Shown: in pieces, positions 25,625 to 46,479 of the stretch
Layout: every line of letters begins with the position of its first letter
Position numbering within the stretch: the first letter of the stretch is position 1
Source: a virus
Lineage: Duplodnaviria; Caudoviricetes
IMG/VR virus record: IMGVR_UViG_3300027804_002812
Span: 128,001 to 192,000 of that record
DNA length: 64,000 nt
Reading direction: 5' to 3' (one strand)
Notes under the pieces: model-generated
Seen by the model: the letters and a program-made list of their open reading frames with translations, nothing else
Database searches by the model: none
Told to the model about the DNA's origin: nothing
Program-made: the position numbers and the translations under genes

Positions 25625-25662
25625 AAAAAAAAATCCCCACCTTTTGAGTGGGGATTTTTTTT
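25625..25662. terminator. intrinsic terminator
   Basis: atccccac/gtggggat stem with flanking A and T runs. Confidence 0.8.
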
Positions 25663-26033
25663 TACTTTAGTTTTTTGAGTTGGTCTCGAATCTCGATTGA
25701 TTTTTCAAAATTTTGTTCTTCGATTGACTTTTTAAGTTCCTCTTCAAGTTTATCGATTTCCTTTTGGTTTGATTCCAACTTTTTAATTTGGTCTCTCAAT
25801 TCAACCGCTTTTTCAAAATCCTCATTTTCAATTGCGATTTCAAGTTGTTGTTTCAGATTTTTTGAAGTTGGGTTTGTTTTAGTGTTGTCGTAGTAATACG
25901 TAGTTATTTTCATTGTTCCATCTTCTGAAACTTTAGTTTGAGTTTTCCACTCACCGTTAGATGGGGTTAATTGATTGAACATTTCGTCGAATGTTCTAAA
26001 GATGTCGTTATAAGATCTTCTGTTACCAAACAT
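25662..26033 (-). CDS. tandem UVR (UvrB/UvrC) motif protein, candidate ClpC adaptor
   Basis: LKQQLEIAIENEDFEKAVELRDQI and LEEELKKSIEEQNFEKSIEIRDQL. Confidence 0.8.
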   Translation of the reverse strand: MFGNRRSYNDIFRTFDEMFNQLTPSNGEWKTQTKVSEDGTMKITTYYYDNTKTNPTSKNLKQQLEIAIENEDFEKAVELRDQIKKLESNQKEIDKLEEELKKSIEEQNFEKSIEIRDQLKKLK

Positions 26034-26064
26034 AATTTTAGTTTTTTGTTTTAAGTTTATTTGT

Positions 26065-26072
26065 TATCTTTG
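26065..26072 (+). promoter_or_regulatory. Bacteroidota -7 box upstream of clpC
   Basis: TATCTTTG. Confidence 0.5.
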
Positions 26073-26101
26073 TTCCAAGATTTATGCCGGTAGTGGTTCT
26101 A

Positions 26102-26157
26102 TGACAATATGTCAGAAAAAGATATAATAAAAATAAATATTTCCTGACAATTTGTCA
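26102..26157. promoter_or_regulatory. two palindromic operators TGACA-N3-TGTCA
   Basis: tgacaatatgtca at 26102-26114 and tgacaatttgtca at 26145-26157. Confidence 0.65.
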
Positions 26158-26212
26158 AATCATTTGGATAAGAATAAAAATTGTTATTACTTTGTAAAAA
26201 TTAAAAAACATT

Positions 26213-28225
26213 ATGAACGACTTAATGGACGACGAAGACAAAATGATGAGTAAAAAACAGAAGTCAGGAGATACCTCGACACCTGTTCTAGACAATTTCA
26301 GTAGAGATTTGAATAAACTTGCAGAGGCGGGTAAGTTGGACCCTGTCATCGGAAGAGACCGAGAGATTCTACGAATCGCACAAATTCTTTCCCGAAGAAA
26401 GAAAAATAATCCAATTATTCTTGGTGAACCTGGTTGTGGTAAAACTGCAATTGTTGAAGGTTTGGCGATGAAAATTGTCAATGGTGATTGTCCTCGTAAT
26501 CTTTTGGATAAAAGATTGGTTAACCTTGACCTAACTTCAGTTGTTGCTGGTACAAAGTATCGTGGACAATTTGAAGAAAGAATGAAGGTTATCATCGAAG
26601 AACTTCAGGCTAATCCTAACATCATCGTATTCATTGATGAAATTCATACTTTGGTTGGCTCAGGTAATTCTTCAGGTTCGATGGATGGTTCCAACATTTT
26701 CAAACCAGCACTATCTCGTGGTGAACTACAAGTAATCGGTGCAACCACTTTGGATGAGTTCAGAAAGAACATCGAAAAAGATGGGGCATTGGAACGTAGA
26801 TTCCAAAAAGTTATTGTTGACCCATCTACAGTGACTGAGACAATCCAAATTTTGAAGAATGTTCGGGACAAATACGAAACATATCACAAAGTGACTTATT
26901 CCGATGAAGTCATTGAAACTTGTGTTAAGTTGGCGGATAGATATATCACCGACCGTGAATTCCCTGACAAAGCATTCGACATCTTGGATGAAGTTGGTGC
27001 TAGAATGCAGACCGAACTTAAGGTTCCTGAGGCTATCGAAGAGTTGAAGCGTAAAGCTGCAGAACTTAAACAACAGAAGTTGGATGTAGTTAAAAAACAG
27101 AATTACGAACAAGCCGCACAACTCAGAGACAAAGAGAAAAAGTTGTTGGACAAATTGGACCAAGAAAAACAAAAATTCGAGGAACAAATGTCCAAAGACA
27201 AACAAAAGGTCGGAATGGATGATGTTTATGATGTTGTTTCAAACATGACTAAAATCCCTGTTAACAAAATGTCTACGGATGATACCAAAGCGTTGTTGAA
27301 CTTGGACAAACACATTGTTGGAACTGTCATTGGTCAGGATGCCGCGGTTATCAAGGTTGCAAAATCTATCAAGAGAAACCGACTAGGTATCAAAGATCCA
27401 AATCGTCCGATTGGTTCATTCGTTTTCTTGGGTTCAACAGGTGTTGGTAAAACTCACTTAGCAAAACAACTTGCAAAGGAAATGTTTGGAAGTGAGGACG
27501 CGCTAATCCGTGTGGATATGTCTGAGTACCAAGAGAAACATACCGTATCCAAATTGGTTGGAGCACCTCCAGGCTATGTTGGATACGAAGAAGGTGGATT
27601 GTTGACTGAGAAAGTTAAGAACAAGCCTTACTCTGTTATCTTGTTTGATGAGGTTGAGAAAGCTCACAAAGATGTATTCACCGTATTACTTCAAATCTTG
27701 GACGATGGTCACGTTACGGATAGTTTGGGTAGAAAGATTAACTTCAAGAATACCCTAATTATCTTAACATCAAATCTCGGAGTTAAAAAACTACAAGACT
27801 TCGGAACTGGTATTGGATTCTCATCAAGTACCTATGGTAACGAAGAGGCGAAGAAAGAAATCTTGATGAAAGAAATGAAGAATTTCTTTTCTCCTGAGTT
27901 TATCAACCGTATCGATGACACCATTGTTTTCAATTCTCTATCTCAAGAGGATATCAAGAAAATCACCGACATCGAACTTAAGAAGTTGATGAAGCGTCTT
28001 GACGAAATGAAGTATAAGATTACTTATGATGAATCACTTTTGAATTACCTCTCAAAAATCGGATATGATGAGGTATACGGTGCAAGACCACTCAAGAGAG
28101 CGATTCAGGATAAAGTTGAAGACTTATTATCTGAAGAAGTTCTGACCGACAAAATTATAGTAGGAAAAACCTACGTGATTAAAGTCGAAGATGAAGTAGT
28201 CAAAGTAGTCAAGAAAGGTCGGTAA
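26213..28225 (+). CDS. clpC: ClpC-like Hsp100 AAA+ unfoldase lacking the N-terminal Clp domain
   Basis: GEPGCGKT and GSTGVGKT Walker A motifs, short UVR-type M-domain, GIGF ClpP-docking loop, GARPL. Confidence 0.9.
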
Positions 28226-28228
28226 ATT

Positions 28229-28255
28229 AAAAAGGGGATAATTCCCCTTTTTTTT
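28229..28255 (+). terminator. intrinsic terminator
   Basis: aagggga/tcccctt stem plus T-run. Confidence 0.8.
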
Positions 28256-28267
28256 ATATTTATAGAC

Positions 28268-28876
28268 ATGAGTAATTTTTCCCGACTATTAGACAAATTC
28301 AAAAATTCATTCCCAAAAGACTTACAATCAAAAGTTGATGTAATTGAAAATTTTGTTGTGGGATATATTCAAGAAAATGACCTCAATGTAAAGTTCTTGA
28401 ATTCATGTTCCGCAGGGTTCAAAGGAGTTAGGACAAGAGACCAAATTATTATTTGTTCTCCAATCAGTATGGAAACCATAGGAGACTTTTTATATACCAT
28501 ATTTCACGAAATCAGGCATGAGCAACAGATTAGAGATTTGAAAATGTTAAATCCTTTAACGGATTTTGATTTAGAGGATTTCGAGGCTCTTTACGAACAA
28601 TACTGGAATATGGAGTTGGATGCCGATAAATTCGCAAAAGAAATGGTGGCAAAACTGGTAATCAAATTGGGGATTCCAATCGATATTGCAAAAAAATTAT
28701 TTTCGTTGTCACCATACGTTCAGCAATATCCAACCATGTCAAACATGGTTCGTGGAGGTATTCAACAAATTATTAATGACATTAAGAGAATAAAAAAATC
28801 GGGTGGAGAATATACTGATATTCAAGACCACCCGGTAGTACAAAGACACATCGATAAGTTAGAGGATTTTATTTAA
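28268..28876 (+). CDS. putative HExxH zinc metallopeptidase
   Basis: FHEIRHEQQ ... ELDADKFA. Confidence 0.6.
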   Translation: MSNFSRLLDKFKNSFPKDLQSKVDVIENFVVGYIQENDLNVKFLNSCSAGFKGVRTRDQIIICSPISMETIGDFLYTIFHEIRHEQQIRDLKMLNPLTDFDLEDFEALYEQYWNMELDADKFAKEMVAKLVIKLGIPIDIAKKLFSLSPYVQQYPTMSNMVRGGIQQIINDIKRIKKSGGEYTDIQDHPVVQRHIDKLEDFI

Positions 28877-29502
28877 TCTATCAACTTCAATATTATCGTA
28901 TAAAAAGTTGATTTACCTTCCCACCCGTAAGAATCATAATCGACTGATTCAACTGAAAAATGTTGATTAGATAACACACGAATATCTTCTTCGGTTACAC
29001 CATCGCAGTTTTCAATTAATACAATTTTCCCATTTGGGTTTAGGTATCTATGTACAGATTCGAAAAACTTTTTATGAAATTGCATGTCATAGTCCAAAGA
29101 GATTAATTTTTCTTCACTACTTCTATAACCATTAGGTCTTTCAGTTTTGAAATGTGGGGGGTTTGATACGATAGTGTCAAACTTATTGGAGTCCTCCATT
29201 GAATCAAAACAATCGGACTGAATAAACTCAACTTTCAGATTATTAAATCGATTTGTTGTTTCTATACTATCTCGAACCTCGGGATTAATATCTGACAAAA
29301 CTAATCTATTTGCTTTATTATATTTCAATAAAGTGTAACCGATGAATCCAGGCCCTGAACATATTTCCAATACGTCCCCTTGGTCTTGAATTTTATTTAT
29401 AATATCGGATTTGGTAATGGCATTAAATCCAAAAGTAGTGCCACCTCCGTCAAACCTTTTTTCGTAGAATACTGAAAGATCGATGATATTGAATAATTCC
29501 AT
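28873..29502 (-). CDS. class I SAM methyltransferase (PrmC/RsmC-small-like)
   Basis: VLEICSGPGFIG; IVSNPPHF. Confidence 0.8.
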   Translation of the reverse strand: MELFNIIDLSVFYEKRFDGGGTTFGFNAITKSDIINKIQDQGDVLEICSGPGFIGYTLLKYNKANRLVLSDINPEVRDSIETTNRFNNLKVEFIQSDCFDSMEDSNKFDTIVSNPPHFKTERPNGYRSSEEKLISLDYDMQFHKKFFESVHRYLNPNGKIVLIENCDGVTEEDIRVLSNQHFSVESVDYDSYGWEGKSTFYTIILKLID

Positions 29503-29504
29503 AA

Positions 29505-30338
29505 TCAAAAGGGATGAAATTGTCCTCTTGGCACCGACTTTTTGAAATGTAATTTATACCCTAACTCGTCAATCATTTTTCTTCCCATTTCTATCCCATT
29601 GAATACGTCCTCAATAACGACATATTCTTCTGGCGTATGATAATCATAATATCCAATAGAAAAATTAATACAAGAAAAATCAAATTTACTTCTCAAGGCA
29701 TAAACGTCTGTATATGGGTGAACCATATATTGCATTTGTTCATTAATCATTCCTTCAGTCAAAACCTTATCAATTTTTTCGAAGAACTCGGTACCTCTGT
29801 CAAATAACATCTGTCCAAAACATTTTTCAGTAATCATCCAATTTTCGGGGGCATCGAACTGAATACCATATCCAACATTTTCAAAAAATTTGGAATCGGC
29901 AGCTTTTGAGCCATGACATCCAGTTTCTTCTGAAACGAAGAATGCCGCTTTAAGGTATGGTAATTCTTTAAGTAAAGTTAAACAGGCAAACACACCACAT
30001 TTGTCGTCTCCTCCAATGCCTGTCGGTCTCTCGTTATCATTAAATGCTTTCAATGCTGGCTTCAATTCACCTTGGGCATTTTTCAACATCATTTCTTTTA
30101 CGTTGATTGTATCGATATGGTGAACTGTATCTGTATGTGATATTACACAAGGAAAATAAAAATCTTCAGGAAGGTCTGTTGTTCCTTGTTTGGTTGCATA
30201 GATATTCATTGTGTCATCGACATAATGTTCTATATTGTTTTCGGTTAACCAATTAACCAAAAATTCAACCATACGATGTTCTTGGTAAGTTTTTGTGGGT
30301 ACGCTCAGAACTTCTTTGAGCAAAGTTATATCTTTCAT
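29505..30338 (-). CDS. M20/M28-family metallopeptidase
   Basis: SHTDTV, GGDDKCG, SEETG, YHTPEE metal ligands. Confidence 0.8.
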   Translation of the reverse strand: MKDITLLKEVLSVPTKTYQEHRMVEFLVNWLTENNIEHYVDDTMNIYATKQGTTDLPEDFYFPCVISHTDTVHHIDTINVKEMMLKNAQGELKPALKAFNDNERPTGIGGDDKCGVFACLTLLKELPYLKAAFFVSEETGCHGSKAADSKFFENVGYGIQFDAPENWMITEKCFGQMLFDRGTEFFEKIDKVLTEGMINEQMQYMVHPYTDVYALRSKFDFSCINFSIGYYDYHTPEEYVVIEDVFNGIEMGRKMIDELGYKLHFKKSVPRGQFHPF

Positions 30339-30358
30339 TCTATAAAGATATAAATAAA

Positions 30359-31402
30359 TTAGATTTCATCCAAACTAAATAATGAAGGTTGGTATAATAA
30401 ATTGTAAAAATTTTGTTCACTTAAAGATACTGTCTTTTGTTTTAATCCTTTCGACAATGTCACTATTATTTTCATTTCAGGAAACTTAAATCCTTCAATT
30501 TTGAACCTTATTTCTTTTTTGGGGTCTTTTGGTAAAAAGTAATATTCTTCTTGTCTAAATTTTTTCAAAATTCTCGAAGTCATATCAGTGAAATCTTTGA
30601 AACTAACTCCCTCTTCTTCTCCCTCTTCTTGAATCGTATCCAAAATTTCAGTAAAAATTGTGTTTGCGACTCTGTTGAAGCCTAAAGAGTCAAACTCATT
30701 GGGGTCTTCATAAGCATAATAATCTTCTTCCCAACCGCCTGGTGCTTCTTTTCTACTAAAAATCCTTTCTAATAATTCTTTCAAAGAAATATGGAGTTCA
30801 CCTTCTTCAATATACAACGCTATCAAGTCTGCTACCGTAATTCTGAAACCTTCACTATATGCGTCAATACCCAACTCAGCAAAATACTCATCCATTTCTT
30901 TATTTATCTCTCTTGCAAGTGATGTCTTGAATGCATGATTTTTTTCGTCTACGTAATCTTCAATAACGTATTTTATTTTTTTTCCGAAATTTTCCATTAA
31001 TTTTTCAGATAACTCCTTTCTGTATTCGTCATCTTCAAAGTTGACTTTCATAGGAAGTATGGCGTTGGAAATTTCAGACAATAGCTCCTTATTTTCTTCG
31101 TCCAAAGTGTAGTAAAACCCATACCCCACCATAAAATCTTCTACTGCGGAATAGTGATCCAAAAATTCATACTCAGAATAAGGTGCATTCACCATTTGAT
31201 AAAACCAAACATCATCATCCCGCATTCCCAACATTTCTAAAAAATCTTGTTGATTGCGAAATTCAACATCAATAACACTCTGACCAGGCGTACTTCTGTC
31301 TTCTCTCATGTACGAGAATAGCTTATCAGAGGCTAAAAGTTCATCTTTGGTTATTTTGTGTTTAGCGTAATTTCTTAATGACCTGAAAGTTTCATAATTC
31401 AT
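30359..31402 (-). CDS. acidic hypothetical protein
   Basis: ORF with start moved to MNYETF; TATTTAT directly upstream. Confidence 0.7.
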   Translation of the reverse strand: MNYETFRSLRNYAKHKITKDELLASDKLFSYMREDRSTPGQSVIDVEFRNQQDFLEMLGMRDDDVWFYQMVNAPYSEYEFLDHYSAVEDFMVGYGFYYTLDEENKELLSEISNAILPMKVNFEDDEYRKELSEKLMENFGKKIKYVIEDYVDEKNHAFKTSLAREINKEMDEYFAELGIDAYSEGFRITVADLIALYIEEGELHISLKELLERIFSRKEAPGGWEEDYYAYEDPNEFDSLGFNRVANTIFTEILDTIQEEGEEEGVSFKDFTDMTSRILKKFRQEEYYFLPKDPKKEIRFKIEGFKFPEMKIIVTLSKGLKQKTVSLSEQNFYNLLYQPSLFSLDEI

Positions 31403-31438
31403 ACTACAAATAAATATCAATTTAGTTGGATTCGGAAA

Positions 31439-31456
31439 TATTTATACTTACATTTG
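31439..31456 (+). promoter_or_regulatory. stacked TATTTATA motif and -7 box upstream of the tmRNA
   Basis: TATTTATA 31439-31446, TACATTTG 31449-31456. Confidence 0.65.
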
Positions 31457-31465
31457 TACAACAAT

Positions 31466-31882
31466 GGGGGTGAAATAGAATTGATTAACGTTTGTATAAT
31501 CAATGGGCACGTAGTCAGAATTCATCTATGACTTGAATCTACGGTGAAGAAAGTAAACGGCAATACTCTTGCTAAGATGTCTGCTTTAGGTTTAACTAGA
31601 GAAGCATCTGTTGTAACTGCTTAAGAAGTAGATACAACGTCAGGTCGAATGGGCATATAACCTAGGAACAGAAGCCCTCCAAGGTGTGATACCACCCGAA
31701 GCGTATCAAAAGGTCACGTTCAGAGGACTACCTTAGTAAAAGTGAACTCGACACAGTTGTTGGTAACGATGTCAAAATAGGAACCATCTATTTCGGAAGG
31801 TATCACAAACCTTGGCCTAAACGTGTAGTCCATTTTTGATATGGCGGGTAAGACTGGGAGGCGGTATCCCACACCTCCACCA
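31466..31882 (+). ncRNA. ssrA: tmRNA
   Basis: GGGGGTG/CACCTCC acceptor stem with G3:U70, 3' ACCA, T-arm TGGGA-GGCGGTA-TCCCA, pk1-like GTCA/TGAC, TAAAC-GGC resume site, tag ORF 31559-31624. Confidence 0.9.
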
Positions 31883-31888
31883 TTAAAT

Positions 31889-31920
31889 AAAAAAGGGAGT
31901 CATTGACTCCCTTTTTTTTT
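31889..31920. terminator. bidirectional terminator between the tmRNA and the lipoprotein gene
   Basis: gggagtca/tgactccc stem with A and T runs. Confidence 0.85.
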
Positions 31921-33115
31921 AGTTTCCTTTTGACGGAAATCTTGTCCATCCATTGACCCATATAGGTTTGTCTAATTCCGGTATTACCACGTCAACTTCT
32001 TTATTACTTTTTGATAATGCCAATGTTTTAAGTTGTTCACTTGTTAGAATTGTTGTCGCTCTACTAATGAAATTCAGAGTTGGATTGAATGTTCCAACAG
32101 AATTGTTTTCAAAGACAGATACACCATCTTTTACGAACTGTGCGGTTTCATTACTTTCCAAACTTAAGCCACCTTTCATCCATCCCCAAACTACGCTATT
32201 CTTCATTGTGAATTGGGTAGCTCTTCTAAATCTCAATCCTAAGTTGTGGTTAGCCAATGCTGAAGATGTATTTGGTCCAACCAAAATCATATTGAAAAGT
32301 TTTGGGTGTGTGTAAGGTTGTGCTGCGGATCCTGTTCCATCATTATCACATTCCACACCATTTCCAGCGTCACCACTATCGACAAATTGAGGGTCTCTTT
32401 TTGCCACTCCGTTTGTAATCATCCCTGTATAACCAAAGTCAAAGTCGAAATCATCATCTGCGGTTGCAAATGCGTAAAGATTTTTACCATTTACGGTTCC
32501 ACCAAAGAATTCGAATGCGTCATCGTTAGCATATATTGTTTGAATGTTTTCAAGAATTGTTCCGTTTCCTACACCACCTAAAGTAAGTGCGTTGATTTCA
32601 GAATTCGGCATCGCTGCGATTCCTGCATATTCAATTCTAACGAATCTCAATACACCACTATTATCAGAATCATTTGTTCCACCATAAGGTCTTCCAATAC
32701 CACCTTCGATTGTAGGTTCAGAAGAACGGTTTGTCTTCGCTCTACCTAAAATTACTATACCACCCCAATCACCAGGAGATCGTTGTCCCTCAGGTCTCCC
32801 AGACGTAAATACAATAGGTTTGGATTGGGTTCCTTCCGCAATAATTTGGGAACCTCTTTCAATACATAACGCTCCCTTCTCGGCAACATCAGAAACTATG
32901 GTAGTTCCAGGTTGGATAATAAGTTTTGCTCCATCGGTTACATAAACATATCCTTTAAGTGTCCAAACTTTGTCAGATGTCAAAGTTGTTGTCGTGTTTA
33001 TGTTTCCTGTAAGTGTTGTGGTAGCTGGGACATTCACTGGTCCTTCTCCTCCACCTAAATCTCTATCACAGCTGAAGAGACCTAATGCAATCATAATTGT
33101 TAATAGTTTTTTCAT
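31919..33115 (-). CDS. Bacteroidota-type lipoprotein (beta-helix-like), partner of the TonB receptor
   Basis: lipobox LFSC; GDWGGIVILG, YVRIEY-like and DDAFEFFGG motifs; 4-bp overlap with the receptor gene. Confidence 0.75.
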   Translation of the reverse strand: MKKLLTIMIALGLFSCDRDLGGGEGPVNVPATTTLTGNINTTTTLTSDKVWTLKGYVYVTDGAKLIIQPGTTIVSDVAEKGALCIERGSQIIAEGTQSKPIVFTSGRPEGQRSPGDWGGIVILGRAKTNRSSEPTIEGGIGRPYGGTNDSDNSGVLRFVRIEYAGIAAMPNSEINALTLGGVGNGTILENIQTIYANDDAFEFFGGTVNGKNLYAFATADDDFDFDFGYTGMITNGVAKRDPQFVDSGDAGNGVECDNDGTGSAAQPYTHPKLFNMILVGPNTSSALANHNLGLRFRRATQFTMKNSVVWGWMKGGLSLESNETAQFVKDGVSVFENNSVGTFNPTLNFISRATTILTSEQLKTLALSKSNKEVDVVIPELDKPIWVNGWTRFPSKGN

Positions 33116-35598
33116 AAATTTAGATTTAAGGTTAATGAAACTATTGTTTCGTTATTTGTGTTTATTAAATTACGGTTTGAAATTCTTTGATAGTTTATTG
33201 ATGGTTGTGCAAAAATGTCTGATATTGCCAATTTCAATTCTCCCTTTGGAAGTTTGTGTAAGAAAGTAATATCCAAAACATCTCTACTATTTTCGAATAT
33301 GTCAGGATAACCCTGAAATCCGACAGCGGAAATCCTTTCTCCAATTCTATTGTAGGTTAGATTAAGTGTATTATTTTTCTTGTTGATGTTTACACCTGAA
33401 TTAACAACATAGTTTGATTGTCCTTGTAATTGTCTTTTTACACCATTTACATCAACCTCAGAATTCATAACTGAAGCGTTTGTGTAAAAATCAAACCATC
33501 CATTTATTCTTTTTCTAACTTCCATTTCAACACCATATACAAGAGCGGATTCAGGATTTGAATAAGTTAAAAGTAAGTTGGATGGGACTGACCCATCGGC
33601 AACAACTTGTTCGATTGGGTTTACGAAATTCTTACCAAAAAATGAGAGAGAAATATTTTCTGTGTTTGAAGGATATAATTCGTATTTCAAATCAACATTG
33701 TATATGTCGGTTTTTTTCAAGTTGGAGTTTCCTAATATTTGTGCGTTTCTAACAAAGTCATAATATGCGAAGTTCGCAACTTCTCTGAACTCTGGTCTTG
33801 CCAAGGTCTTACTCAAAGAGAATCTATATTTTGTCTTCTCCAAGTTATAAGAAAGGTTCAATGATGGAAGAATATCCAAATATGTTCTATCCACATTCAC
33901 CTTTTGACCACTGAAATCTGCGGTCTCCACATCAAACAAGTTGTATTCACCTCTTACACCTGTATTGATTTTCCATTTTCCGATTTCGTTCTCATACATC
34001 GTATAAAGATTACCCAAATCAAAGTCAGCGGTATATCTGTCTGTATTGTTGGTTATTTCATCCAATAAATCCGTTGTTTGATATCTGAAAACTCTTGCAT
34101 TAAATCCTCGAATCTTTTTCAGATAACCTCCACCAACTTCAAATTTACCCAAATCTTTTTTCAAGTTTCCGTTGAATGAATTTTCATCCATAACGCTCCA
34201 AAATCTGTAGGTGTCTCTCCATGCCGTTGCAAATGGTTCATTCACACCTAATGATTTGGTGATTGGGTTAATTCTATAATCAGGTTGTTCTCTGAAGATA
34301 TAGTTATATCCGAAATTGAAATCAAAAGTTTCAATATTACCATCAACCTGTGAGTTGATTACCACGTTATTGATATGGTTTGACGCATTACTCAACACAT
34401 CTTGTACGTTGTCAAAGTTTTGTCCTTCTCTTGTTAGGTATGAACTTTCCTTTTGGAAGTTTGCCAATGTTTTCCAACTATATTTGTTTTTACCCAAATA
34501 AGTTAAGTTTAATAATCCATTTGTGGAGAATCTCTGGGTGTATAATCTATCGTTATAGTCATATGCCAATTCAGTGGAAGATTGATAATCCTTTCTCTCA
34601 ATGTTGTTGAGAGTATATGAGTTTCTAATTGTTGAACTGAATAATGAATTGAATTTGTTTTTCACATAACCAAATGAAACTCCTCCATTTAAGTTTGGTA
34701 TGGATTGAAACCCATTTTCAGTTGGGTTTCCTATTTGTTTGGTGAATAGTCGTTTGTCTCCATTACCACTTATTCTGTATTTGTAAGTGGAAGGAAAGGT
34801 TGACGGAAATGGGATCGATTCCACCAGTTTGAAGCCTTGGAAAGTCGAGACAGATCCGATTCCCGTCCCCAAGCTTACGTCCAAAAAATTGTCGGACACC
34901 TCCTTTGTCGATACTTGAACCAATCCTCCACTCCAATCACCAGGTTGGTTTGCCGAAAATGATTTGGAGACCATAATATTATCAATCAAAGAAGTTGGGA
35001 TAATATCAAATGAGAATGCCCGTCTATCAGGCTCTGTGGATGGTAAAGGTGTCTGATTTAATAATGCCGAATTATATCTATCGGCAAGTCCTCGAACCAA
35101 AACAAATTTGTCATTCTGAATTGTGACACCACTTACTCGTTTCAATGCGTCACCCAAATTTCTATCGGGGGTCTTCTTTATGAATTCTATTGATAATCCA
35201 TCGGATACGACAATATTATTTCGTATAGATTTCATAACCGATATATCTGTGACTTTTTGAGCAGTTCCTCTCACAAGTACCTCATTTAACTCTGTATCAG
35301 TTTGTTCGAAAAGGATATCAAAGATTGTAACCGTGGTTACAGTAATAGTGGTTACGAAATCTTTATATCCGATGTATGTTCCTTTTACTTCATAAGTTCC
35401 TTCTTTCAAAGTTATACTGTACTTGGCGTTTTCATCAGAAATTGTTGTGAACTTATTACCATCAGTATCTTGAAATGTTACGTGTGCAAAGTAAATGTCT
35501 TCAGTTTTTGATTTTGTTGTCCCATTGATGGTTATTTCCTTTTGTTGTGAAAACAAGGTCAATGGAAATAGGAGTAAAAAAATTAGTGTCCTAATCAT
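33112..35598 (-). CDS. TonB-dependent outer-membrane receptor
   Basis: signal peptide, N-terminal CarboxypepD-like domain, plug DALKRVSGVT...VRGLADRYN, C-terminal beta-strand LTLNLNL. Confidence 0.9.
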   Translation of the reverse strand: MIRTLIFLLLFPLTLFSQQKEITINGTTKSKTEDIYFAHVTFQDTDGNKFTTISDENAKYSITLKEGTYEVKGTYIGYKDFVTTITVTTVTIFDILFEQTDTELNEVLVRGTAQKVTDISVMKSIRNNIVVSDGLSIEFIKKTPDRNLGDALKRVSGVTIQNDKFVLVRGLADRYNSALLNQTPLPSTEPDRRAFSFDIIPTSLIDNIMVSKSFSANQPGDWSGGLVQVSTKEVSDNFLDVSLGTGIGSVSTFQGFKLVESIPFPSTFPSTYKYRISGNGDKRLFTKQIGNPTENGFQSIPNLNGGVSFGYVKNKFNSLFSSTIRNSYTLNNIERKDYQSSTELAYDYNDRLYTQRFSTNGLLNLTYLGKNKYSWKTLANFQKESSYLTREGQNFDNVQDVLSNASNHINNVVINSQVDGNIETFDFNFGYNYIFREQPDYRINPITKSLGVNEPFATAWRDTYRFWSVMDENSFNGNLKKDLGKFEVGGGYLKKIRGFNARVFRYQTTDLLDEITNNTDRYTADFDLGNLYTMYENEIGKWKINTGVRGEYNLFDVETADFSGQKVNVDRTYLDILPSLNLSYNLEKTKYRFSLSKTLARPEFREVANFAYYDFVRNAQILGNSNLKKTDIYNVDLKYELYPSNTENISLSFFGKNFVNPIEQVVADGSVPSNLLLTYSNPESALVYGVEMEVRKRINGWFDFYTNASVMNSEVDVNGVKRQLQGQSNYVVNSGVNINKKNNTLNLTYNRIGERISAVGFQGYPDIFENSRDVLDITFLHKLPKGELKLAISDIFAQPSINYQRISNRNLINTNNETIVSLTLNLNL

Positions 35599-39386: not shown

Positions 39387-39397
39387 ATTCAACAAAG

Positions 39398-40027: not shown

Positions 40028-40031
40028 GTGT

Positions 40032-40448
40032 TTATTTTTTCAACAACCAAGACGAAGATTGGATTTTATCGCCAAGTCCATCAATCAACTTAATCCCTAA
40101 CCAATCACATATGTGTCTCTCAGGGATGCTATTGTTAGTTTGGTCTCCACCATTGGCGAATAAGTATTCATCCTCTCTATCCCCCAAAGTATAAATCGTT
40201 TCGAGTGTTTTACAAACAGTTCTATCTGTATCTATGGAGGGGAAAACTCTATCAACCATTTTCAAATTTTGGACGATAAACATTCTCTCATCTTCACTCT
40301 GAAACTCTTTACTACCTTTCAACTCTCTCTGTTTGTCGTTATTGACGATAACATAGAGTTTATCACCATGTTCTTTGGACTTATTGAAATATTCAATATG
40401 TCCCTTATGAACAGGATTAAAATAACCGCTTACAATTACAATTTTCAT
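40032..40448 (-). CDS. cytidylyl/adenylyltransferase (HxGH family)
   Basis: VSGYFNPVHKGH; FANGGD; SSSW. Confidence 0.85.
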   Translation of the reverse strand: MKIVIVSGYFNPVHKGHIEYFNKSKEHGDKLYVIVNNDKQRELKGSKEFQSEDERMFIVQNLKMVDRVFPSIDTDRTVCKTLETIYTLGDREDEYLFANGGDQTNNSIPERHICDWLGIKLIDGLGDKIQSSSWLLKK

Positions 40449-40464
40449 ATTCTAAAATTAAATG

Positions 40465-40538
40465 AGGTCAGAATCGGATTCGAACCGATGGATACTTGTT
40501 TTGCAGACAAGCCCCTTAAGCCACTTGGGTATCTGACC
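40465..40538 (-). tRNA. tRNA-Cys(GCA)
   Basis: CTTGT-CTGCAAA-ACAAG; U73. Confidence 0.9.
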
Positions 40539-40547
40539 ATTTATAAT

Positions 40548-40615
40548 GTGTCAGGACGGGTTTCTAACCCGCTCCTCAGTTAACTACTGTGTGCTGCCAT
40601 TTACACCACCTGACT
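40548..40615 (-). ncRNA. minimal tRNA-like RNA (truncated anticodon arm)
   Basis: GTCAGG/CCTGAC acceptor, D- and T-arms present, only an 18-nt centre. Confidence 0.55.
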
Positions 40616-40680
40616 AAATTTAGATTTCTAAAACTCATCCTCGAAAGGGTAAAGAAACTCCATCTTATTTGTTTTTTGCG

Positions 40681-40801
40681 TAGTCAGGACAGGATTCGAA
40701 CCTGTACGAAGAGTATGTGTGTCTCTTCTCCTATGGGTTTACCTCAAGGGTTTCCACCTGCCATCGCACGTTGTAGCGTCTACCAATTTCGCCACCTGAC
40801 T
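40681..40801 (-). ncRNA. tRNA-like RNA, Leu-type frame with 70-nt structured centre
   Basis: AGTCAGG/CCTGACT-A, GCGAAATTGGTAGACGC D-arm, ACAGG-TTCGAAT-CCTGT T-arm. Confidence 0.7.
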
Positions 40802-40885
40802 ATATTAGGTTAGAGGCTGTTAACCATAAGGTCGTACGAAACATCACTTGTACTTCGTGTCAGGGAATTTCCCATACCTCTAAAG

Positions 40886-41028
40886 TAGTCAGGACAGGAT
40901 TCGAACCTGTATGATTGAAAAGACCAATTTTATTCGGTTCTTCGGGATGGTCAACATATTTAATGTGATGTCTCACGGCCCGATTAATCAATCACCCATT
41001 ACACGTCTACCAATTTCGCCACCTGACC
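40886..41028 (-). ncRNA. tRNA-like RNA, Leu-type frame with 92-nt structured centre
   Basis: same near-identical 5' and 3' blocks as 40681-40801, unrelated centre. Confidence 0.7.
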
Positions 41029-41147
41029 AATGTTTTTAGTTACTTTATCAACACTTCTCCAAGAACCACCTCGGCCAGTTTATATCAATTTCACTTAGGT
41101 TACGTCATGATTCTGCTGGTTAAGCGTCCTCAATCTAAACCCGTTTG

Positions 41148-41221
41148 TACTCCGTACGGGACTCGAACCCGTAAGCTCTCCCGTGAAAGGGGAGTGTCCT
41201 AACCAATTAGACGAACGGAGC
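41148..41221 (-). tRNA. tRNA-Glu(TTC)
   Basis: CTCCC-CTTTCAC-GGGAG. Confidence 0.9.
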
Positions 41222-41233
41222 TTGTTTGTCTTA

Positions 41234-41241
41234 CAAAGATA
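41234..41241 (-). promoter_or_regulatory. Bacteroidota -7 box for the tRNA array
   Basis: TATCTTTG on the minus strand, 12 nt before tRNA-Glu. Confidence 0.7.
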
Positions 41242-41273
41242 CTACAATATTTCAAAGAACAAAAACATGTCAT

Positions 41274-41308
41274 AAAAAAACCCCAAACTTTTTTTAAGAG
41301 TTCGGGGT
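41274..41308 (-). terminator. intrinsic terminator
   Basis: ACCCCGAACT/AGTTTGGGGT stem plus T7. Confidence 0.75.
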
Positions 41309-41345
41309 CTAAAAATTTAATTTATCTAAATTAAAAAATTACTTT

Positions 41346-41435
41346 CTATGACATCCGAACTACAGGGCAAATACCTTCATACCAACATTTCTCTTGTTGA
41401 CTATTACTGTTAATATGTTGACCTGTAGTTCTCAT
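41346..41435 (-). CDS. 29-aa leader-like peptide inside a large hairpin
   Basis: MRTTGQHINSNSQQEKCWYEGICPVVRMS; own TTGACA-type promoter and downstream terminator. Confidence 0.4.
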   Translation of the reverse strand: MRTTGQHINSNSQQEKCWYEGICPVVRMS

Positions 41436-41492
41436 TGTATTGATAATTACTTCTAATGTATGAAATATTTTTATTTTGTCAAATGTTTTTTG

Positions 41493-41566
41493 TATCCCCG
41501 ACACGATTCGAACGTGTGACCCCAAACTTAGAAGGTTTGCGCTCTATCCAGCTGAGCTACGGAGAC
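41493..41566 (-). tRNA. tRNA-Arg(TCT)
   Basis: CAAAC-CTTCTAA-GTTTG. Confidence 0.9.
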
Positions 41567-41571
41567 AAATA

Positions 41572-41733
41572 TTACTGACCGTATATTTTTTTAGCAAGTT
41601 CTTCGGCTTCAGCCAGAAGTTTGTCAGATGCGGTTCTGTTTGTATGAGATAATTTATAAGCATCTGCCATCATTTTCTCATAAGTTTCCTGTAGTTTTTC
41701 TTTTTCTGTTTTCTTCTTAAATAATCCGAACAT
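41572..41733 (-). CDS. Lacal_2735-family-like small protein (53 aa, below the ORF-track cutoff)
   Basis: MFGLFKKKTEKEKLQETYEKMMADAYKLSHTNRTASDKLLAEAEEL. Confidence 0.7.
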   Translation of the reverse strand: MFGLFKKKTEKEKLQETYEKMMADAYKLSHTNRTASDKLLAEAEELAKKIYGQ

Positions 41734-41771
41734 AATATGTGAATAACACTATCGTCTTTGAAAGTTTTTAT

Positions 41772-42023
41772 TTAATCTTTATGCCTTGCGGCGTTCAATC
41801 TACTTTCAAGTTTATCAAGTCGTGAATCTATTGTTCGATAAATATCGTCAATAATTCTATCACGATCTCTCATTTGATTTTCAATTTCTCTTGCGAGAAA
41901 CTGATTTATTTGTTTAATTTCTTCCTTCTGTTTATTCACTCTAACAAAAGCAATAACCGCAACCACTGCCACAGCAATGACCACAACTATAGACATTCCT
42001 AAAATAAATGATACTAAATCCAT
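41772..42023 (-). CDS. membrane-anchored coiled-coil protein
   Basis: N-terminal TM helix; AAGGAG SD upstream; flanked by an inverted repeat. Confidence 0.7.
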   Translation of the reverse strand: MDLVSFILGMSIVVVIAVAVVAVIAFVRVNKQKEEIKQINQFLAREIENQMRDRDRIIDDIYRTIDSRLDKLESRLNAARHKD

Positions 42024-42070
42024 ATAATTTTCTCCTTTATTCCAAAGAACGATAGTGTTATACTCTACAT

Positions 42071-42709
42071 TTATGTTACTCTACCTGGTTTCCAACCGTC
42101 GGGAATAATATCTTCTTTTTTTATTTTTCTATTTTCATCACCATTTGTAATCCATTTTGTACCAAATTGTGAGTTAGATTTTCCGATACCCTTTCCTTTT
42201 TGAACTTCTCTCATTTTTCTTTTGGTCTCCTCGGTGTGAAGCCTATTTCTGAATGTTGCGTGATCAAAATTACTTTTTTGGAATCCCAATTTAATTCGAT
42301 TCGAGAACCACTTATTCCATTCGTCATTCATCAGAAGTTTTTGAACTTCTGGTGACCCTTTAATTAGATTCTTTTTTCCTGCTTCTGAAAATTTATATTT
42401 ATGATTATCGTTTACAAATCCACCAGATCCACCAGGTTTCAGATTCATACACATCGGGTCTTTCAATAAATTTTCATTTACTAATTCTTTTTCTCTTAAA
42501 GACAAAGAAAGCCTATTTGGGAAAAATTCTAAAATTTCGAGCTTAAAATTTTCTTTACCATTTTTCCTAATAGACCTTCTTAATCTAATTCCACTCCCTA
42601 AATAACCATCATTCAGATTATCACTTGAGTGCATACCTATATAAAACTTTCCATTTTTAAGGTTTGTGGTTTTATATATGTAATGATACTTTTTTTGTGG
42701 TCTTGCCAT
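42071..42709 (-). CDS. GIY-YIG homing endonuclease (Seg-like, NUMOD3-type tail)
   Basis: YIYKTTNLKNGKFYIG; YLGSG; HTEETKRKM. Confidence 0.88.
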   Translation of the reverse strand: MARPQKKYHYIYKTTNLKNGKFYIGMHSSDNLNDGYLGSGIRLRRSIRKNGKENFKLEILEFFPNRLSLSLREKELVNENLLKDPMCMNLKPGGSGGFVNDNHKYKFSEAGKKNLIKGSPEVQKLLMNDEWNKWFSNRIKLGFQKSNFDHATFRNRLHTEETKRKMREVQKGKGIGKSNSQFGTKWITNGDENRKIKKEDIIPDGWKPGRVT

Positions 42710-42760
42710 AACTTATACATTATATATATAAATATAGCAAAGTACAAAAAAGTACTCCGG

Positions 42761-42843
42761 TATCAGAGATGGGAGTCGAACCCACACGAGCTTTCGCCCA
42801 GCAGATTTTAAGTCTGCCATGTATACCATTCCATCACTCCGAC
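42761..42843 (-). tRNA. tRNA-Leu(TAA)
   Basis: GCAGA-CTTAAAA-TCTGC; long variable arm; A73. Confidence 0.9.
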
Positions 42844-42869
42844 ATTATTCTACAAATATAATGAAAGTT

Positions 42870-43520
42870 TTAGATACTTTCAACCCGATGTTTCATAATT
42901 TCACAATACTTCTCATCGATTTCATAACTAATAGAGTTGAATCCCAACTCTTGAGCAACCTTACTTGTTGTTCCACTTCCACCGAATACATCGATAATTG
43001 TTTGATTTGGTTGTGCGGTTGTCAAAATAATTCTTCGGATTACTTCCTCAGGAATTTGACAAGGGTGCTCGGTCTTTTCCTTGCTAACATTTTTGACTTG
43101 GTTGATTTCCCACCAATCATAAAGTTTTGCACCAGTCTTTCCTTCAGCAATTCTTTTTTGAATACGTTTGTCTTTGAGATTTTTATATTCCTGTCTGACT
43201 TTCCTAAAGTCAGGTTTACAACCCCACCATGATATCAATCGACTTTGTTTTCCTGTGTTGGAATTATACACCCAACAAACAACCTGTTCACATTTGGCGT
43301 TGATTGCCTTTGGTAACAAGTTGATTGTTTCTTCGGGGTAATGAATGATGACACAAGGGGTTGGGATTTTGGATAATAATTCGATATAATCCTCTTCGCT
43401 TAATTTGTCTTTATATTCGTTGTAAGAATATTCTTGATTATAAGGTGGGTCGGTTATTGTTAATCCTGTTGGTATGTCGCAGTTTCTAAAATCTTCGTTA
43501 ATAATTGTTGTTTCCACCAT
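42870..43520 (-). CDS. N6-A/N4-C DNA methyltransferase (beta class)
   Basis: DPPY, then HPCQIP, then DVFGGSGTT. Confidence 0.88.
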   Translation of the reverse strand: MVETTIINEDFRNCDIPTGLTITDPPYNQEYSYNEYKDKLSEEDYIELLSKIPTPCVIIHYPEETINLLPKAINAKCEQVVCWVYNSNTGKQSRLISWWGCKPDFRKVRQEYKNLKDKRIQKRIAEGKTGAKLYDWWEINQVKNVSKEKTEHPCQIPEEVIRRIILTTAQPNQTIIDVFGGSGTTSKVAQELGFNSISYEIDEKYCEIMKHRVESI

Positions 43521-43537
43521 AAATTTAATAAATCATT

Positions 43538-44236
43538 CTAAAATTCTTCTTCCCACAGTGTGTTGGATATAGACTCCTCAATGTTGTATGCGTGTGATAA
43601 TATAACATATTTTTTGTCAAAGTAAAATTGGAATTCTCCTTGAGATCCTTCATTTATTTCCCAACCTCCGAAGTTTTCTTCCAATTGTTGATAACACCAT
43701 TCTTCTATTTCGGGTGGTACAGGTTGACCACTCTCAAAATTCGATTCGATGTATCCACTATCACCACCTCCATTATACTTCAAGACCAAATAATTATCTT
43801 CAGGAATTTCGATATCATCGAAAACTCCTTTTTCTTCCCACTCTTCAATCATATCATCGTATTCGACACCTTCTGAACCTCCCTCAGTTTGATAACTATA
43901 CATGTGTGTTAAGGAGATTTCTTTTTTAACACTATCAATCGTTATTTCGAATCCTTGATAAACGATGTTAGCATCATTAGGTAATTCATCGTATAATCCT
44001 TCATCATCAACATAACTGATAATTTTTTTCAATATTGGTACAAGGCCGTCTGGAATTTCTGCGGTATAATTATTCTCAAAATGAGTTGGAAAATAATTTT
44101 CCCCGTATGAAATTTCATCGTCGTCTGGTTCCATTTCAAATGTAATTTCTCCATAGCTTATTCCCAATGAACTGAGATATCTCGAAACTTTACCTAAATA
44201 TTTTTTTTCTTCTGGTGTTAATATATTTTGTGCCAT
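43538..44236 (-). CDS. acidic protein, C-terminal DUF6878-like domain
   Basis: YNGGGDSGYIE...GWEINEGSQG. Confidence 0.55.
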   Translation of the reverse strand: MAQNILTPEEKKYLGKVSRYLSSLGISYGEITFEMEPDDDEISYGENYFPTHFENNYTAEIPDGLVPILKKIISYVDDEGLYDELPNDANIVYQGFEITIDSVKKEISLTHMYSYQTEGGSEGVEYDDMIEEWEEKGVFDDIEIPEDNYLVLKYNGGGDSGYIESNFESGQPVPPEIEEWCYQQLEENFGGWEINEGSQGEFQFYFDKKYVILSHAYNIEESISNTLWEEEF

Positions 44237-44247
44237 ACAAATAAATA

Positions 44248-44601
44248 TCAGTCTTCGAATTCTAATTTAATTGTCTTCAACATCCATTGTGGTCTTTGAC
44301 TGGTCGCAACATTATTAACCCATTCTTTTGCGGATGGAATGTAGTTGTTACAATCTTCCTTTACATGTTGTTCACCAACATATCGGGTATAAACTGTCTT
44401 ACCATCCGAGTTTTTGAATTCGGTACCAAACCTTTTTTCCATTTCAAATATTCCTTCACTATGATGTCTAAACATTCTATGTAGGGAATCACCAAACCAT
44501 GACTTGGTTTCGTCTAACCATTCATGCAAATGAATGTAGTCCTCAGGTTTTCCACCAAACTTTTTGGCGGATGATTTTGCATGTAAGTTTGGATGTGCCA
44601 T
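44248..44601 (-). CDS. DUF6915-like His-rich protein
   Basis: HPNLHAKSSAKKFGG...RHHSEGIF...EQHVKED. Confidence 0.65.
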   Translation of the reverse strand: MAHPNLHAKSSAKKFGGKPEDYIHLHEWLDETKSWFGDSLHRMFRHHSEGIFEMEKRFGTEFKNSDGKTVYTRYVGEQHVKEDCNNYIPSAKEWVNNVATSQRPQWMLKTIKLEFED

Positions 44602-44722
44602 TATGATTTAATTTGTGAAAAAGATTGTAACGTCTGTACGGTTTGTTTCCAAGGATAATCCTTCAGTTTCCATTTCATTCTTAGCGTCCGTTCCGTCATT
44701 CTTTCGAATCGTTACTATATTG

Positions 44723-44804
44723 CAGAGGAGACAGGATTCGAACCTGCAAAGCTTTTACACCCGACGGTTTTCAAGACCGCTCAACAACCGCTGTCCACTC
44801 CTCT
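44723..44804 (-). tRNA. tRNA-Ser(TGA), atypical D-arm
   Basis: GCGGT-CTTGAAA-ACCGT; G73; long variable arm. Confidence 0.8.
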
Positions 44805-44983
44805 AATTAAACCTAACATAATCAAATCGTCATTTGAATAGAGGTTAGGGGTGTGATTTTAGCTTATACCTTGGGCTATTCACTTATATCACAATACAAC
44901 CTCTGTGTTGTTCTTACGGTTAACATCGAGGTACACGGCTTACCCTGGGACGCTGTTCTTATGGATAGCGTGGTAATTACCGT

Positions 44984-45058
44984 TGGAGCTCCCACTCGGA
45001 ATCGAACCAAGTTATCATGATTACAAGTCATGTGCATCGCCAGCAATGCTTTAGGAGC
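44984..45058 (-). tRNA. tRNA-Thr(TGT), CCA encoded
   Basis: CATGA-CTTGTAA-TCATG; 3' TCCA. Confidence 0.9.
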
Positions 45059-45075
45059 GTATAATTAAATATCTG

Positions 45076-45149
45076 TGGGCCTGGTAGGAATCGAACCTAC
45101 TACCTTCACATTATGAGTGTGCCGCTCTAACCGAGTGAGCTACAGGCCC
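45076..45149 (-). tRNA. tRNA(CAT), Ile2 or elongator Met
   Basis: loop CT-CAT-AA; paired 1:72, so not initiator. Confidence 0.85.
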
Positions 45150-45273
45150 GAAGTATCGTAAATATTAACTATGTTTTTCTTCAAATCAACATGACAAAGG
45201 TAATAAAATTTTTCATTCACAACAACTTTCGTTTCTAAAAAAAATAAATTACTTTTGTTGAAATATTTGATAA

Positions 45274-45759
45274 ATGAGTACGGTATTAGTTTTGAATTCT
45301 GATTACACTCCTCTGAACGTAACAAGTGTTCAGAGAGGATTTGTATTGGTTACCAAAGGAAAGGCGGAAGTGTTAAGGTCGGATGAAAATCCGATTGTGA
45401 CAGGTTACAAGACGTTTATACGACCCGTTATCATACGACTATTAAAATATATTAGGCATAGAACAAGATTGAACAAACCCAACCGTAGTCGCATTTATAA
45501 AAGGGACGGATATGAGTGTGTTTATTGTGGGTCGAAAAAGAATCTAACCTTAGACCACGTTATACCCAAATCAAGAGGAGGTTCGAATGAATGGACAAAC
45601 TTGGTTACTTGTTGTTCAAAGTGTAATCGAGATAAGGACAACAAAACTCCTGATGAGGCAAAGATGCCAATGAAGAAGCCGGCATACGAACCACCAATAA
45701 TGTATGATGATGTGGCGTTATTAAATGTTTGGACAGATTTCCAAAAATCTTTTGTATAA
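45274..45759 (+). CDS. HNH endonuclease (McrA-like)
   Basis: CVYCG...TLDHVIPKSRGG...NLVTCCSKCNRDK. Confidence 0.9.
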   Translation: MSTVLVLNSDYTPLNVTSVQRGFVLVTKGKAEVLRSDENPIVTGYKTFIRPVIIRLLKYIRHRTRLNKPNRSRIYKRDGYECVYCGSKKNLTLDHVIPKSRGGSNEWTNLVTCCSKCNRDKDNKTPDEAKMPMKKPAYEPPIMYDDVALLNVWTDFQKSFV

Positions 45760-45781
45760 AATAAAAATTGTATTAACTTTG
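45751..45781 (+). promoter_or_regulatory. Bacteroidota -33/-7 promoter for clpP
   Basis: TTTG (45751)-N19-TAACTTTG (45774-45781). Confidence 0.7.
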
Positions 45782-45798
45782 TGAAAAATAAATCAGAT

Positions 45799-46479
45799 AT
45801 GAACATCGGACAAGAATTTCAAAACTATTACGTGAAACATTTGGGAAAAGGGTCATTAGACCTTCACAATTTCTCAAGTCAAATTCAATCATCAATGACT
45901 CCTTATATTCTTGAAGAAAGAGAAATGAGGGCAACTCAAATCGACATCTTCTCAAGATTGATGAGAGACAGAATTATTTGGGTGGCTGGTCCTGTGGATG
46001 ATAGAATGTCGACTATTGTACAAGCACAATTGATGTTTATGGACAATGTTGATAAGACCGATATTACTATGCACATTGATAGTCCAGGTGGAAGTGTGAA
46101 GTCAGGATTGTCTATGGTTGATGTAATGAACTACATTGCTTGTGATATCAGAACGGTGAATACAGGTATGGCAGCTTCTATGGGTTCTGTGTTGTTAGGA
46201 GCAGGAACCAAAGGAAAAAGAAGTTCTTTGAGATTTTCGAGAACAATGTTACACCAATCTTCTGGTGGTGCCGTAGGTAACATTCAAGACGCTGAAATCA
46301 CAATGAGAGAATGGGCAAAATTGAATGATATTCTATTTGGTCTCCTTGGTGAGTTTTGTGGAAAAGACCCTGAACAAGTTAAGTTGGACGCTAGTAGAGA
46401 TTTGTGGTTGGATAGTGAACAAGCCCTCGAATATGGAATTATTGACGAGATTGTTAAAACGAAAAAGAGGGGTAAATAA
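45799..46479 (+). CDS. clpP: ATP-dependent Clp protease proteolytic subunit
   Basis: SPGGSV, GMAASMG (Ser), MLHQ (His), RDLW; start moved to ATG 45799. Confidence 0.95.
   Translation: MNIGQEFQNYYVKHLGKGSLDLHNFSSQIQSSMTPYILEEREMRATQIDIFSRLMRDRIIWVAGPVDDRMSTIVQAQLMFMDNVDKTDITMHIDSPGGSVKSGLSMVDVMNYIACDIRTVNTGMAASMGSVLLGAGTKGKRSSLRFSRTMLHQSSGGAVGNIQDAEITMREWAKLNDILFGLLGEFCGKDPEQVKLDASRDLWLDSEQALEYGIIDEIVKTKKRGK

Follow-up and report, generated by a model that had tools for sequence, protein, structure and literature searches.

Does a virus that encodes its own ClpC-type unfoldase, ClpP peptidase and transfer-messenger RNA (tmRNA) command a proteolysis system of its own, and what would switch on a ClpC that lacks its N-domain? 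These questions are raised by a locus of a freshwater jumbo phage (genome ~326 kb), IMG/VR record IMGVR_UViG_3300027804_002812. The window, i.e. the whole stretch of 64,000 nucleotides to which all positions given here refer, comprises bases 128001–192000 of this 326,291-bp record, which is rated complete. Its GC content is about 34%, and the same DNA is present in freshwater metagenomes of 14 studies. A megablast search of GenBank phages with the region gave no match, and neither did tblastn with the small UVR protein encoded next to clpC. The Clp inventory of the complete genome consists of one AAA_2 ATPase and one ClpP. The evidence presented below supports a phage-owned ClpC/ClpP pair and, judged from sequence and gene setting, the UVR protein is probably a partner of the phage ClpC. 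The elements in question are the following.

25662..26033, minus strand: tandem-UVR mini-protein, 123 aa (two Pfam UVR motifs, E 1.3e-15)
26034..26212, no strand: divergent control region with the palindrome TGACA-N3-TGTCA at 26102–26114 and 26145–26157
26213..28225, plus strand: N-domain-less ClpC-type AAA+ unfoldase, 670 aa (Pfam, alignment to S. aureus ClpC, PHROG, RNA contigs)
31466..31882, plus strand: tmRNA (Rfam, covariation, tag conservation, RNA contigs)
45799..46479, plus strand: ClpP serine peptidase (Pfam 1.5e-55, 188 bits; alternative GTG start at 45781)

The original prediction, made from the sequence of the window, had placed here a ClpC that begins at its first AAA domain and keeps a UVR-type middle domain and a GIGF loop, a divergently encoded neighbour with two UVR motifs, a ClpP with a full catalytic triad, and a tmRNA between clpC and clpP. 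All four were borne out: ClpC by Pfam and alignment to Staphylococcus aureus ClpC, the neighbour by its Pfam UVR matches, ClpP by Pfam and alignment to solved ClpPs, and the tmRNA by the gene at 31466–31882.

A ClpC-type unfoldase without an N-domain

The Pfam domain order of the phage ClpC is AAA, AAA_lid_9, UVR (residues 280–311), AAA_2 and ClpB_D2-small. The protein aligned to residues 151–794 of S. aureus ClpC in a single uninterrupted stretch (E 2.6e-219). The alignment of ClpB was split into two stretches, which indicates that the middle domain is of the short UVR type and not of the long ClpB type. Two AAA+ modules are present, as in ClpC-type Hsp100 proteins, with Walker A motifs GEPGCGKT (71) and GSTGVGKT (407), Walker B motifs FIDEIH (140) and LFDEVE (477), and the pore loops KYRG (115) and GYVG (454). 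The ClpP-docking loop GIGF is found at residues 533–536 (nucleotides 27809–27820; IGF at 534–536), where it matches the loop of S. aureus ClpC in the alignment, and the extended motif FGTG[IV]GF is invariant across the clade. At the middle-domain tip, Tyr298 aligns to the position of S. aureus Phe436. The protein is also strongly similar in sequence to the stand-alone disaggregases ClpK/ClpG.

The N-terminal Clp_N repeats of a ClpC-type Hsp100 are missing. A Clp_N domain was found by Pfam neither in the protein nor anywhere in the 326-kb genome, and PHROG 4871 (ATP-dependent protease), which matches with an E-value of 3.7e-243, does so over profile positions 157–756 only. Merely 22 residues stand ahead of the first ring, and there is no room for an N-domain further upstream because the divergent UVR gene is only 179 bp away. 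The leader (26213–26278) begins with an acidic MNDLMDD that is invariant in the clade, and varies over its remainder. In bacterial ClpC, the N-domain binds adaptors and phospho-arginine and helps to keep the enzyme in its resting state.

A wider viral scan with the ClpC alignment returned 518 stretches. The best 80 of these, on which the analysis of the gene slot beside clpC is based, all carry an N-less ClpC, with 66–99% identity. Among megaphages, LR756502 encodes an N-less ClpC of 707 aa with a VGF loop, together with two strong ClpPs, and LR756508 one of 657 aa with an IGF loop, together with a weak ClpP-like match only. N-less ClpCs made up about 9 of the best 150 representatives at 50% identity. 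One adjoins an Hsp20-like gene and one is located inside a bacterial mcsA-mcsB-clpC operon. The 676-aa ClpC of locus L150 (GCA_024402405.1), in such an operon, has no phospho-arginine-binding N-domain, which is odd for a McsB-linked ClpC. Since a quick tree sets the N-less ClpCs apart from one another, the N-domain was lost several times.

A phage-owned ClpC/ClpP pair

The phage ClpP aligns over its full length to solved ClpPs, including that of Streptococcus pneumoniae, and its catalytic residues are Ser133, His158 and Asp207 (counted from the GTG at 45781). It has an N-terminal extension of about 38 residues of the PRK14514 type. This long-N-terminus model was the best-scoring one in NCBIfam (236 bits, profile positions 2–220); its equivalog cut-off of 361 bits is not reached, which marks the protein as a divergent ClpP.

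ClpP was found in all four large relatives checked, 20–32 kb from clpC. Furthermore, two of the N-less ClpCs adjoin ClpP, on phage-like contigs of two other lineages. The retention of both genes in all four relatives and their adjacency in two further lineages support the conclusion that the phage owns a ClpC/ClpP pair.

A virus-only tandem-UVR protein beside clpC

UVR motifs in the genome are confined to two genes, the tandem-UVR gene and clpC. The UVR protein contains no Cys. Its AlphaFold2 model (pLDDT 67) consists of an N-terminal helix, a beta-hairpin and two UVR helical hairpins, and an alignment of 12 relatives shows Phe73 and Phe109 to be invariant, each located just past the turn at a hairpin tip. 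The best NCBIfam match was the C-terminal UVR motif of McsA (47.9 bits, profile positions 126–175 only), followed by UvrB with 30 bits and UvrC with 27 bits. The protein is not an McsA by the usual marks: the family cut-off of 210 bits is not reached, the CxxC zinc fingers are missing, and no McsB kinase partner was found, as the genome contains no ATP-gua_Ptrans domain.

The gene is virus-only. Its Atlas clusters are 100% viral, and a search for cellular homologues gave no full-length relative; the cellular matches cover the UVR motif only, and nearly all of them belong to mcsA genes situated upstream of clpC. The protein is not a small heat-shock protein either, as judged by the lack of a Pfam HSP20 match and by an hhalign probability of 1% against the small heat-shock proteins that take its place in relatives. 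An origin of its N-terminal segment from one of these, which look alike by eye, was rejected on the same hhalign value.

A search with the UVR protein yielded 47 related viral loci. In each of those that include the side in question, the divergently oriented gene next to it is clpC; identities in this set are 38–97% for the UVR protein and 67–99% for ClpC. Classically, the motif serves in UVR–UVR pairing. In bacteria, UVR-domain proteins are documented as partners of the ClpC system by the mcsA-mcsB-clpC operons. UVR-domain proteins were also enriched in a plant CLPC1 trap (PMC8889267).

An exchangeable slot with a candidate operator

Inspection of the best 80 loci revealed that the position divergent from clpC is held by different genes.

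Tandem-UVR protein: 42 of the 80 loci
Hsp20 small heat-shock protein (Pfam 4.6e-14): 13 of the 80 loci
"REGW" protein: about 10 of the 80 loci
KTSC gene or nothing: the rest of the 80 loci

The UVR protein and Hsp20 never occur in the same locus of this set, and no Hsp20 was found in the genome studied here. Because the two alternate in one slot and are never found together, the slot would seem to carry proteostasis partners. The alternative cassettes (L164:3405–3803, L194:3565–3900, L196:3661–3900 and relatives) comprise an Hsp20 small heat-shock protein with an ISLL end, a protein of about 113 aa with the signature "REGW..PPYYP", and an 80-aa KTSC-domain protein.

The palindrome TGACA-N3-TGTCA has two matches in the window, compared with 0.11 expected. 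No other intergenic copy was found in the genome, and the pair is conserved in relatives. A genome-wide regulon was considered and rejected, the two other copies being located inside open reading frames. The palindrome was found upstream of clpC in 33 of 38 UVR-type and 6 of 12 Hsp20-type loci, but in only one of the 21 loci of neither type that were examined, and in none of nine REGW-type loci. Two slot occupants, UVR and Hsp20, are therefore proteostasis-flavoured and have control elements in common with clpC. The palindrome pair is probably an operator, and we regard it as a candidate site for a dimeric regulator.

A tmRNA with a long conserved tag

The tmRNA gene is genuine despite sub-threshold scores. 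Rfam RF00023 matched over the full model length with 38.4 bits (E 2e-12), against a gathering score of 47. ARAGORN gave no tmRNA by default or in relaxed runs down to -ps80, and at -ps70 only a garbled "permuted" call, yet with the correct resume codon. The weak scores can be attributed to the odd T-loop GGCGGUA, found in this genome and in two relatives (L008, L034); the canonical UUCGAAU is present in L010, L002, L004 and L007.

Three lines of evidence from syntenic relatives and RNA data establish the gene: compensatory changes in the stems, conservation of the tag frame, and contigs assembled in four metatranscriptomes. The acceptor is tRNA-Ala-like with a G3:U70 pair and a T-arm, and reads GGGGGUG/CACCUCC with ACCA encoded. 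Across the alignment with relatives it reads GGGGGUG/CACCUCC, GGGGAUG/CAUCUCC, GGGGUAG/CUACUCC or GGGAGUG/CACUUCC; all of these are fully paired, and G3:U is always kept. The T-stem is UGGGA/UCCCA here, occurs in five versions among the relatives, all paired, and covaries within each T-loop form (31840–31882). A terminator hairpin follows at 31895–31911. In some relatives the terminal CCA is not encoded (ACAA, ACCT, ACTT).

The tag frame (31559–31624) encodes GNTLAKMSALGLTREASVVTA, 21 residues, and the tags of relatives read GNILNKMALVGLVRQDELVNVA and GNVLDKLSAVGFIRTEEVAVA. Tag length among relatives is 21–22 residues and the end is (T/V)-A. All relatives retain the frame; the changes seen include synonymous ones and a stop codon switched from TAA to TGA, which shows constraint at the protein level.

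Four freshwater metatranscriptomes, each of a different study, contain contigs that map to clpC, the UVR gene and the tmRNA. Several of these contigs show zero mismatches, the UVR gene being among the regions matched in this way, and the stretch of 2.8 kb from 28.6 to 31.4 kb, to which no such contigs map, provides a silent control. As these data are contigs, expression levels and transcript ends are not derivable from them. Metatranscriptome contigs near 31546–31549 represent related tmRNAs with tag frames starting GNVY..., so that the same lakes contain several expressed variants of the tag.

SmpB was not found in the genome, and the phage tmRNA therefore needs host factors. The original prediction had called the whole system "self-contained", which is overstated in this respect.

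Neighbouring genes

The following genes complete the picture of the locus and its surroundings.

12410–13126: T4 gp21-type prohead protease (Peptidase_S77)
28268..28876, plus strand: unlabelled 202-aa protein, co-directional with clpC and conserved in closer relatives only
29505..30338, minus strand: PepT-like MH-clan (M20/M42) metallopeptidase (Pfam M42/M20; PHROG 4191 peptidase, 8e-33; alignment to Peptidase T, 3gb0)
33112–35598, minus strand: TonB-dependent-receptor-like protein, 828 aa, with CarboxypepD_reg, Plug and outer-membrane beta-barrel domains

The PepT-like peptidase has intact HxD, DDK and EE metal and catalytic motifs and no lid domain. Like the tmRNA, it holds its place beside clpC across the clade. 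This enzyme could trim peptides released by ClpP. The architecture of the TonB-dependent-receptor-like protein suggests that the host may belong to the Bacteroidota.

The UVR gene heads a minus-strand gene string of its own with KTSC and nucleotidyltransferase-like genes. The KTSC homologue of the window is located at 24147–24389 (minus strand). Downstream of the UVR gene, and sharing its strand, a Pol-beta-type nucleotidyltransferase-like protein (23392–24135, minus strand; PHROG 36119) is conserved. On the ClpP side, an HNH endonuclease gene (45274–45759, plus strand) lies directly 5' of clpP, and a GIY-YIG endonuclease (42071–42709) is located inside a tRNA array. A weak tRNA match of 36 bits at 40681–40801 (minus strand) is, with 121 nt, far longer than a tRNA and may represent a tRNA-like RNA that carries an insert.

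Proposed mechanism

Experimental work on S. aureus ClpC is instructive for an enzyme of this build. Without its N-domain, the S. aureus protein forms hexamer rings that are paired head-to-head via Phe436 at the middle-domain tip into inactive ring dimers, and it builds inactive ClpC/ClpP rods (Jenne et al. 2025, PMC12583610). The delta-N ClpC-F436A variant was highly proficient in degrading GFP-SsrA, the tag being read by the pore and not by the N-domain (PMC12583610).

We propose that the phage ClpC and ClpP form the phage's own protease, with ClpC docking on ClpP via its IGF loop. As in S. aureus, the N-less phage ClpC may pair head-to-head via the middle-domain tip and would then be inactive. 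The UVR protein may offer two hairpins, each with a Phe at its tip, which would cap the ClpC middle domains and free active hexamers; its short N-terminal segment might hand clients over to ClpC. With two middle-domain-like hairpin tips on one side and Tyr298 at the Phe436 position on the other, the UVR protein is a plausible competitor for the tip contact, and by this analogy we consider the chances that it caps the tip to be evenly balanced. The phage tmRNA, together with host SmpB, would tag stalled translation products, which may go to the phage protease or to host ClpXP, and the PepT-like neighbour would cut the resulting peptides further. The genes, their motifs, synteny and expression and the exchange of slot occupants are observed; that the UVR protein binds ClpC and activates it, and that the tag is linked to ClpC in any way, are steps that we infer.

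Taken to its full extent, the proposal would have the UVR protein act as a middle-domain mimic that unlocks ClpC ring dimers and the pore read the 21-residue phage tag; rescue, disposal and trimming would all run on phage parts, and relatives would swap the activator for Hsp20 or other cassettes in order to retune the motor. That every part of this extended scheme holds is unlikely, and we offer it tentatively. As for clients, head scaffolds and defence proteins had been suggested originally. The former are unlikely targets given the T4 gp21-type prohead protease in the genome, and nothing points to the latter.

Alternative explanations

Several observations weigh against a dedicated UVR–ClpC–ClpP–tmRNA system. 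The huge phages LR756502 and LR756508, which also have an N-less ClpC, lack a homologue of the UVR protein; nor was a UVR partner found near the N-less ClpC in five other N-less contexts. On a quick ClpC tree, the slot shows at least 14 changes of occupant, a pattern to be expected of a mere insertion hot spot as well. It is an exchangeable cassette in which the UVR partner is not obligatory, and ClpC evidently works without the UVR protein. Covariation of the middle-domain tip of ClpC with the presence of the UVR partner was looked for and rejected: the tip does not differ between slot types (UVR, Hsp20, REGW, nothing), and its conservation is therefore not explained by the UVR partner. The model of the UVR protein is only moderately confident at pLDDT 67, and a Foldseek search of the PDB with it gave no match at E ≤ 0.001, only spurious helical ones. 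Finally, clpP is 17.5 kb away from clpC in the window, and the tag ends in VVTA, not LAA, with no tie to ClpC.

The slot swaps among UVR, Hsp20, REGW and none, the tip that is unaltered by the occupant and the distance of clpP could be accounted for by separate auxiliary proteostasis genes that form no single system. The UVR gene would then sit in a recombination-prone cassette site, and its product would act elsewhere, for example on the UVR domains of host UvrB/UvrC, thereby blunting excision repair, or on host McsA/ClpC. That the UVR motifs also match the UvrB and UvrC models, and that the gene leads its own minus-strand string, fits this explanation. However, the motifs score clearly better against McsA, the sole other UVR motif in the genome is that of ClpC, and the alternative occupant is a bona fide chaperone, with the same operator found beside clpC in UVR- and Hsp20-type slots. 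We consider independent genes a possible explanation, though not a likely one. A different role for the UVR protein, as a brake or hijacker, is quite improbable. It would stabilise or cross-link the middle-domain contacts of ClpC, as the two UVR hairpins per chain could bridge two middle domains, or redirect or inhibit host ClpC in the manner of SPO1 Gp53 in Bacillus, a documented precedent for a phage protein that modulates the host's ClpC like an adaptor (PMC6873191). The tight linkage and common control region with the phage's own clpC speak against such a role.

The motor itself might mainly be a ClpP-free unfoldase or disaggregase with holdase-type partners, the phage ClpP serving host ClpX instead. 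Its strong similarity to ClpK/ClpG, the Hsp20 gene as alternative neighbour (and beside another N-less ClpC), and the N-less ClpC of LR756508 with its weak ClpP-like match only are in line with this. The FGTG[IV]GF docking loop is nevertheless invariant in the clade, and the stand-alone disaggregases are not known to have a ClpP-docking loop. With ClpP present in all large relatives and adjacent to clpC in two other lineages, we regard a ClpP-free ClpC as very unlikely. That the ClpP-like gene encodes a capsid maturation protease is scarcely credible: the best PHROG does name a "head maturation protease", but the full-length, high-scoring match is to cellular ClpP, clpP is surrounded by tRNA, HNH and methylase genes, and the genome has the T4 gp21-type prohead protease at 12410–13126, on which grounds this assignment was rejected. 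A phage-owned ClpC/ClpP pair with the UVR protein as its probable, exchangeable partner is the reading that we prefer.

Significance and comparison with known systems

ClpC is normally held off by its N-domain and by middle-domain contacts, and how it is activated is under active study and matters for its use as a drug target. Giant phages have repeatedly dropped the N-domain, and an abundant freshwater clade puts an exchangeable partner gene beside the truncated motor. The product of this gene either copies the regulatory coiled coil of the motor in the form of two hairpins or is a small heat-shock protein. The system allows a direct test of ClpC activation by middle-domain mimicry, with natural swap variants for comparison. 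Should the link with the phage tmRNA prove true, this virus would be a first example of one that operates a tag-and-degrade pathway of its own.

The closest cellular counterpart is ClpC-ClpP with MecA or McsA/McsB in Bacillus and Staphylococcus. It has in common with the phage system a two-ring Hsp100, a UVR-type middle domain with an aromatic tip, an (I/V)GF loop, and a gene for a small UVR protein beside clpC. The phage ClpC differs by the lack of the N-terminal domain, and the phage encodes neither McsB nor MecA. Compared with McsA, the phage UVR protein lacks zinc fingers and has two UVR motifs where McsA has a single one; its gene is virus-encoded and divergent, not part of an operon. Plant CLPC keeps its N-domain, which is used by CLPF. 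The chloroplast CLPC1 interactors CLPF, EXE1/2 and UVR2–4 (PMC8889267) resemble the phage case in that proteins with the UVR hallmark associate with a ClpC chaperone, whereas outside the UVR motif they are unrelated. The engineered S. aureus delta-N ClpC and delta-N ClpC-F436A (PMC12583610) have the same truncation as the phage enzyme, which retains an aromatic tip with Tyr298 for Phe436; in phages the truncation is natural and recurrent.

Clp genes together with a tmRNA have been reported before in giant phages, for example phage G with ClpX-ClpP and tmRNA (PMC12484599) and AP-J-162 with Clp genes and tmRNA (PMC11242549). Phage G and other jumbo phages with Clp genes (PMC12484599, PMC11242549) are similar to the present phage in owning components of a Clp protease and a tmRNA whose tag is unusual. 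In contrast to phage G, the motor is of the ClpC and not the ClpX type, a partner slot lies beside it, and the tag has 21 residues. What is new is the recurrent N-less type of ClpC, the exchangeable UVR/Hsp20 slot with a common operator, and the long conserved tag. SPO1 Gp53 (PMC6873191), to which no sequence relation was seen, is likewise a small phage protein proposed to steer ClpC-ClpP; the target of Gp53 is the host enzyme, whereas the phage described here brings its own ClpC.

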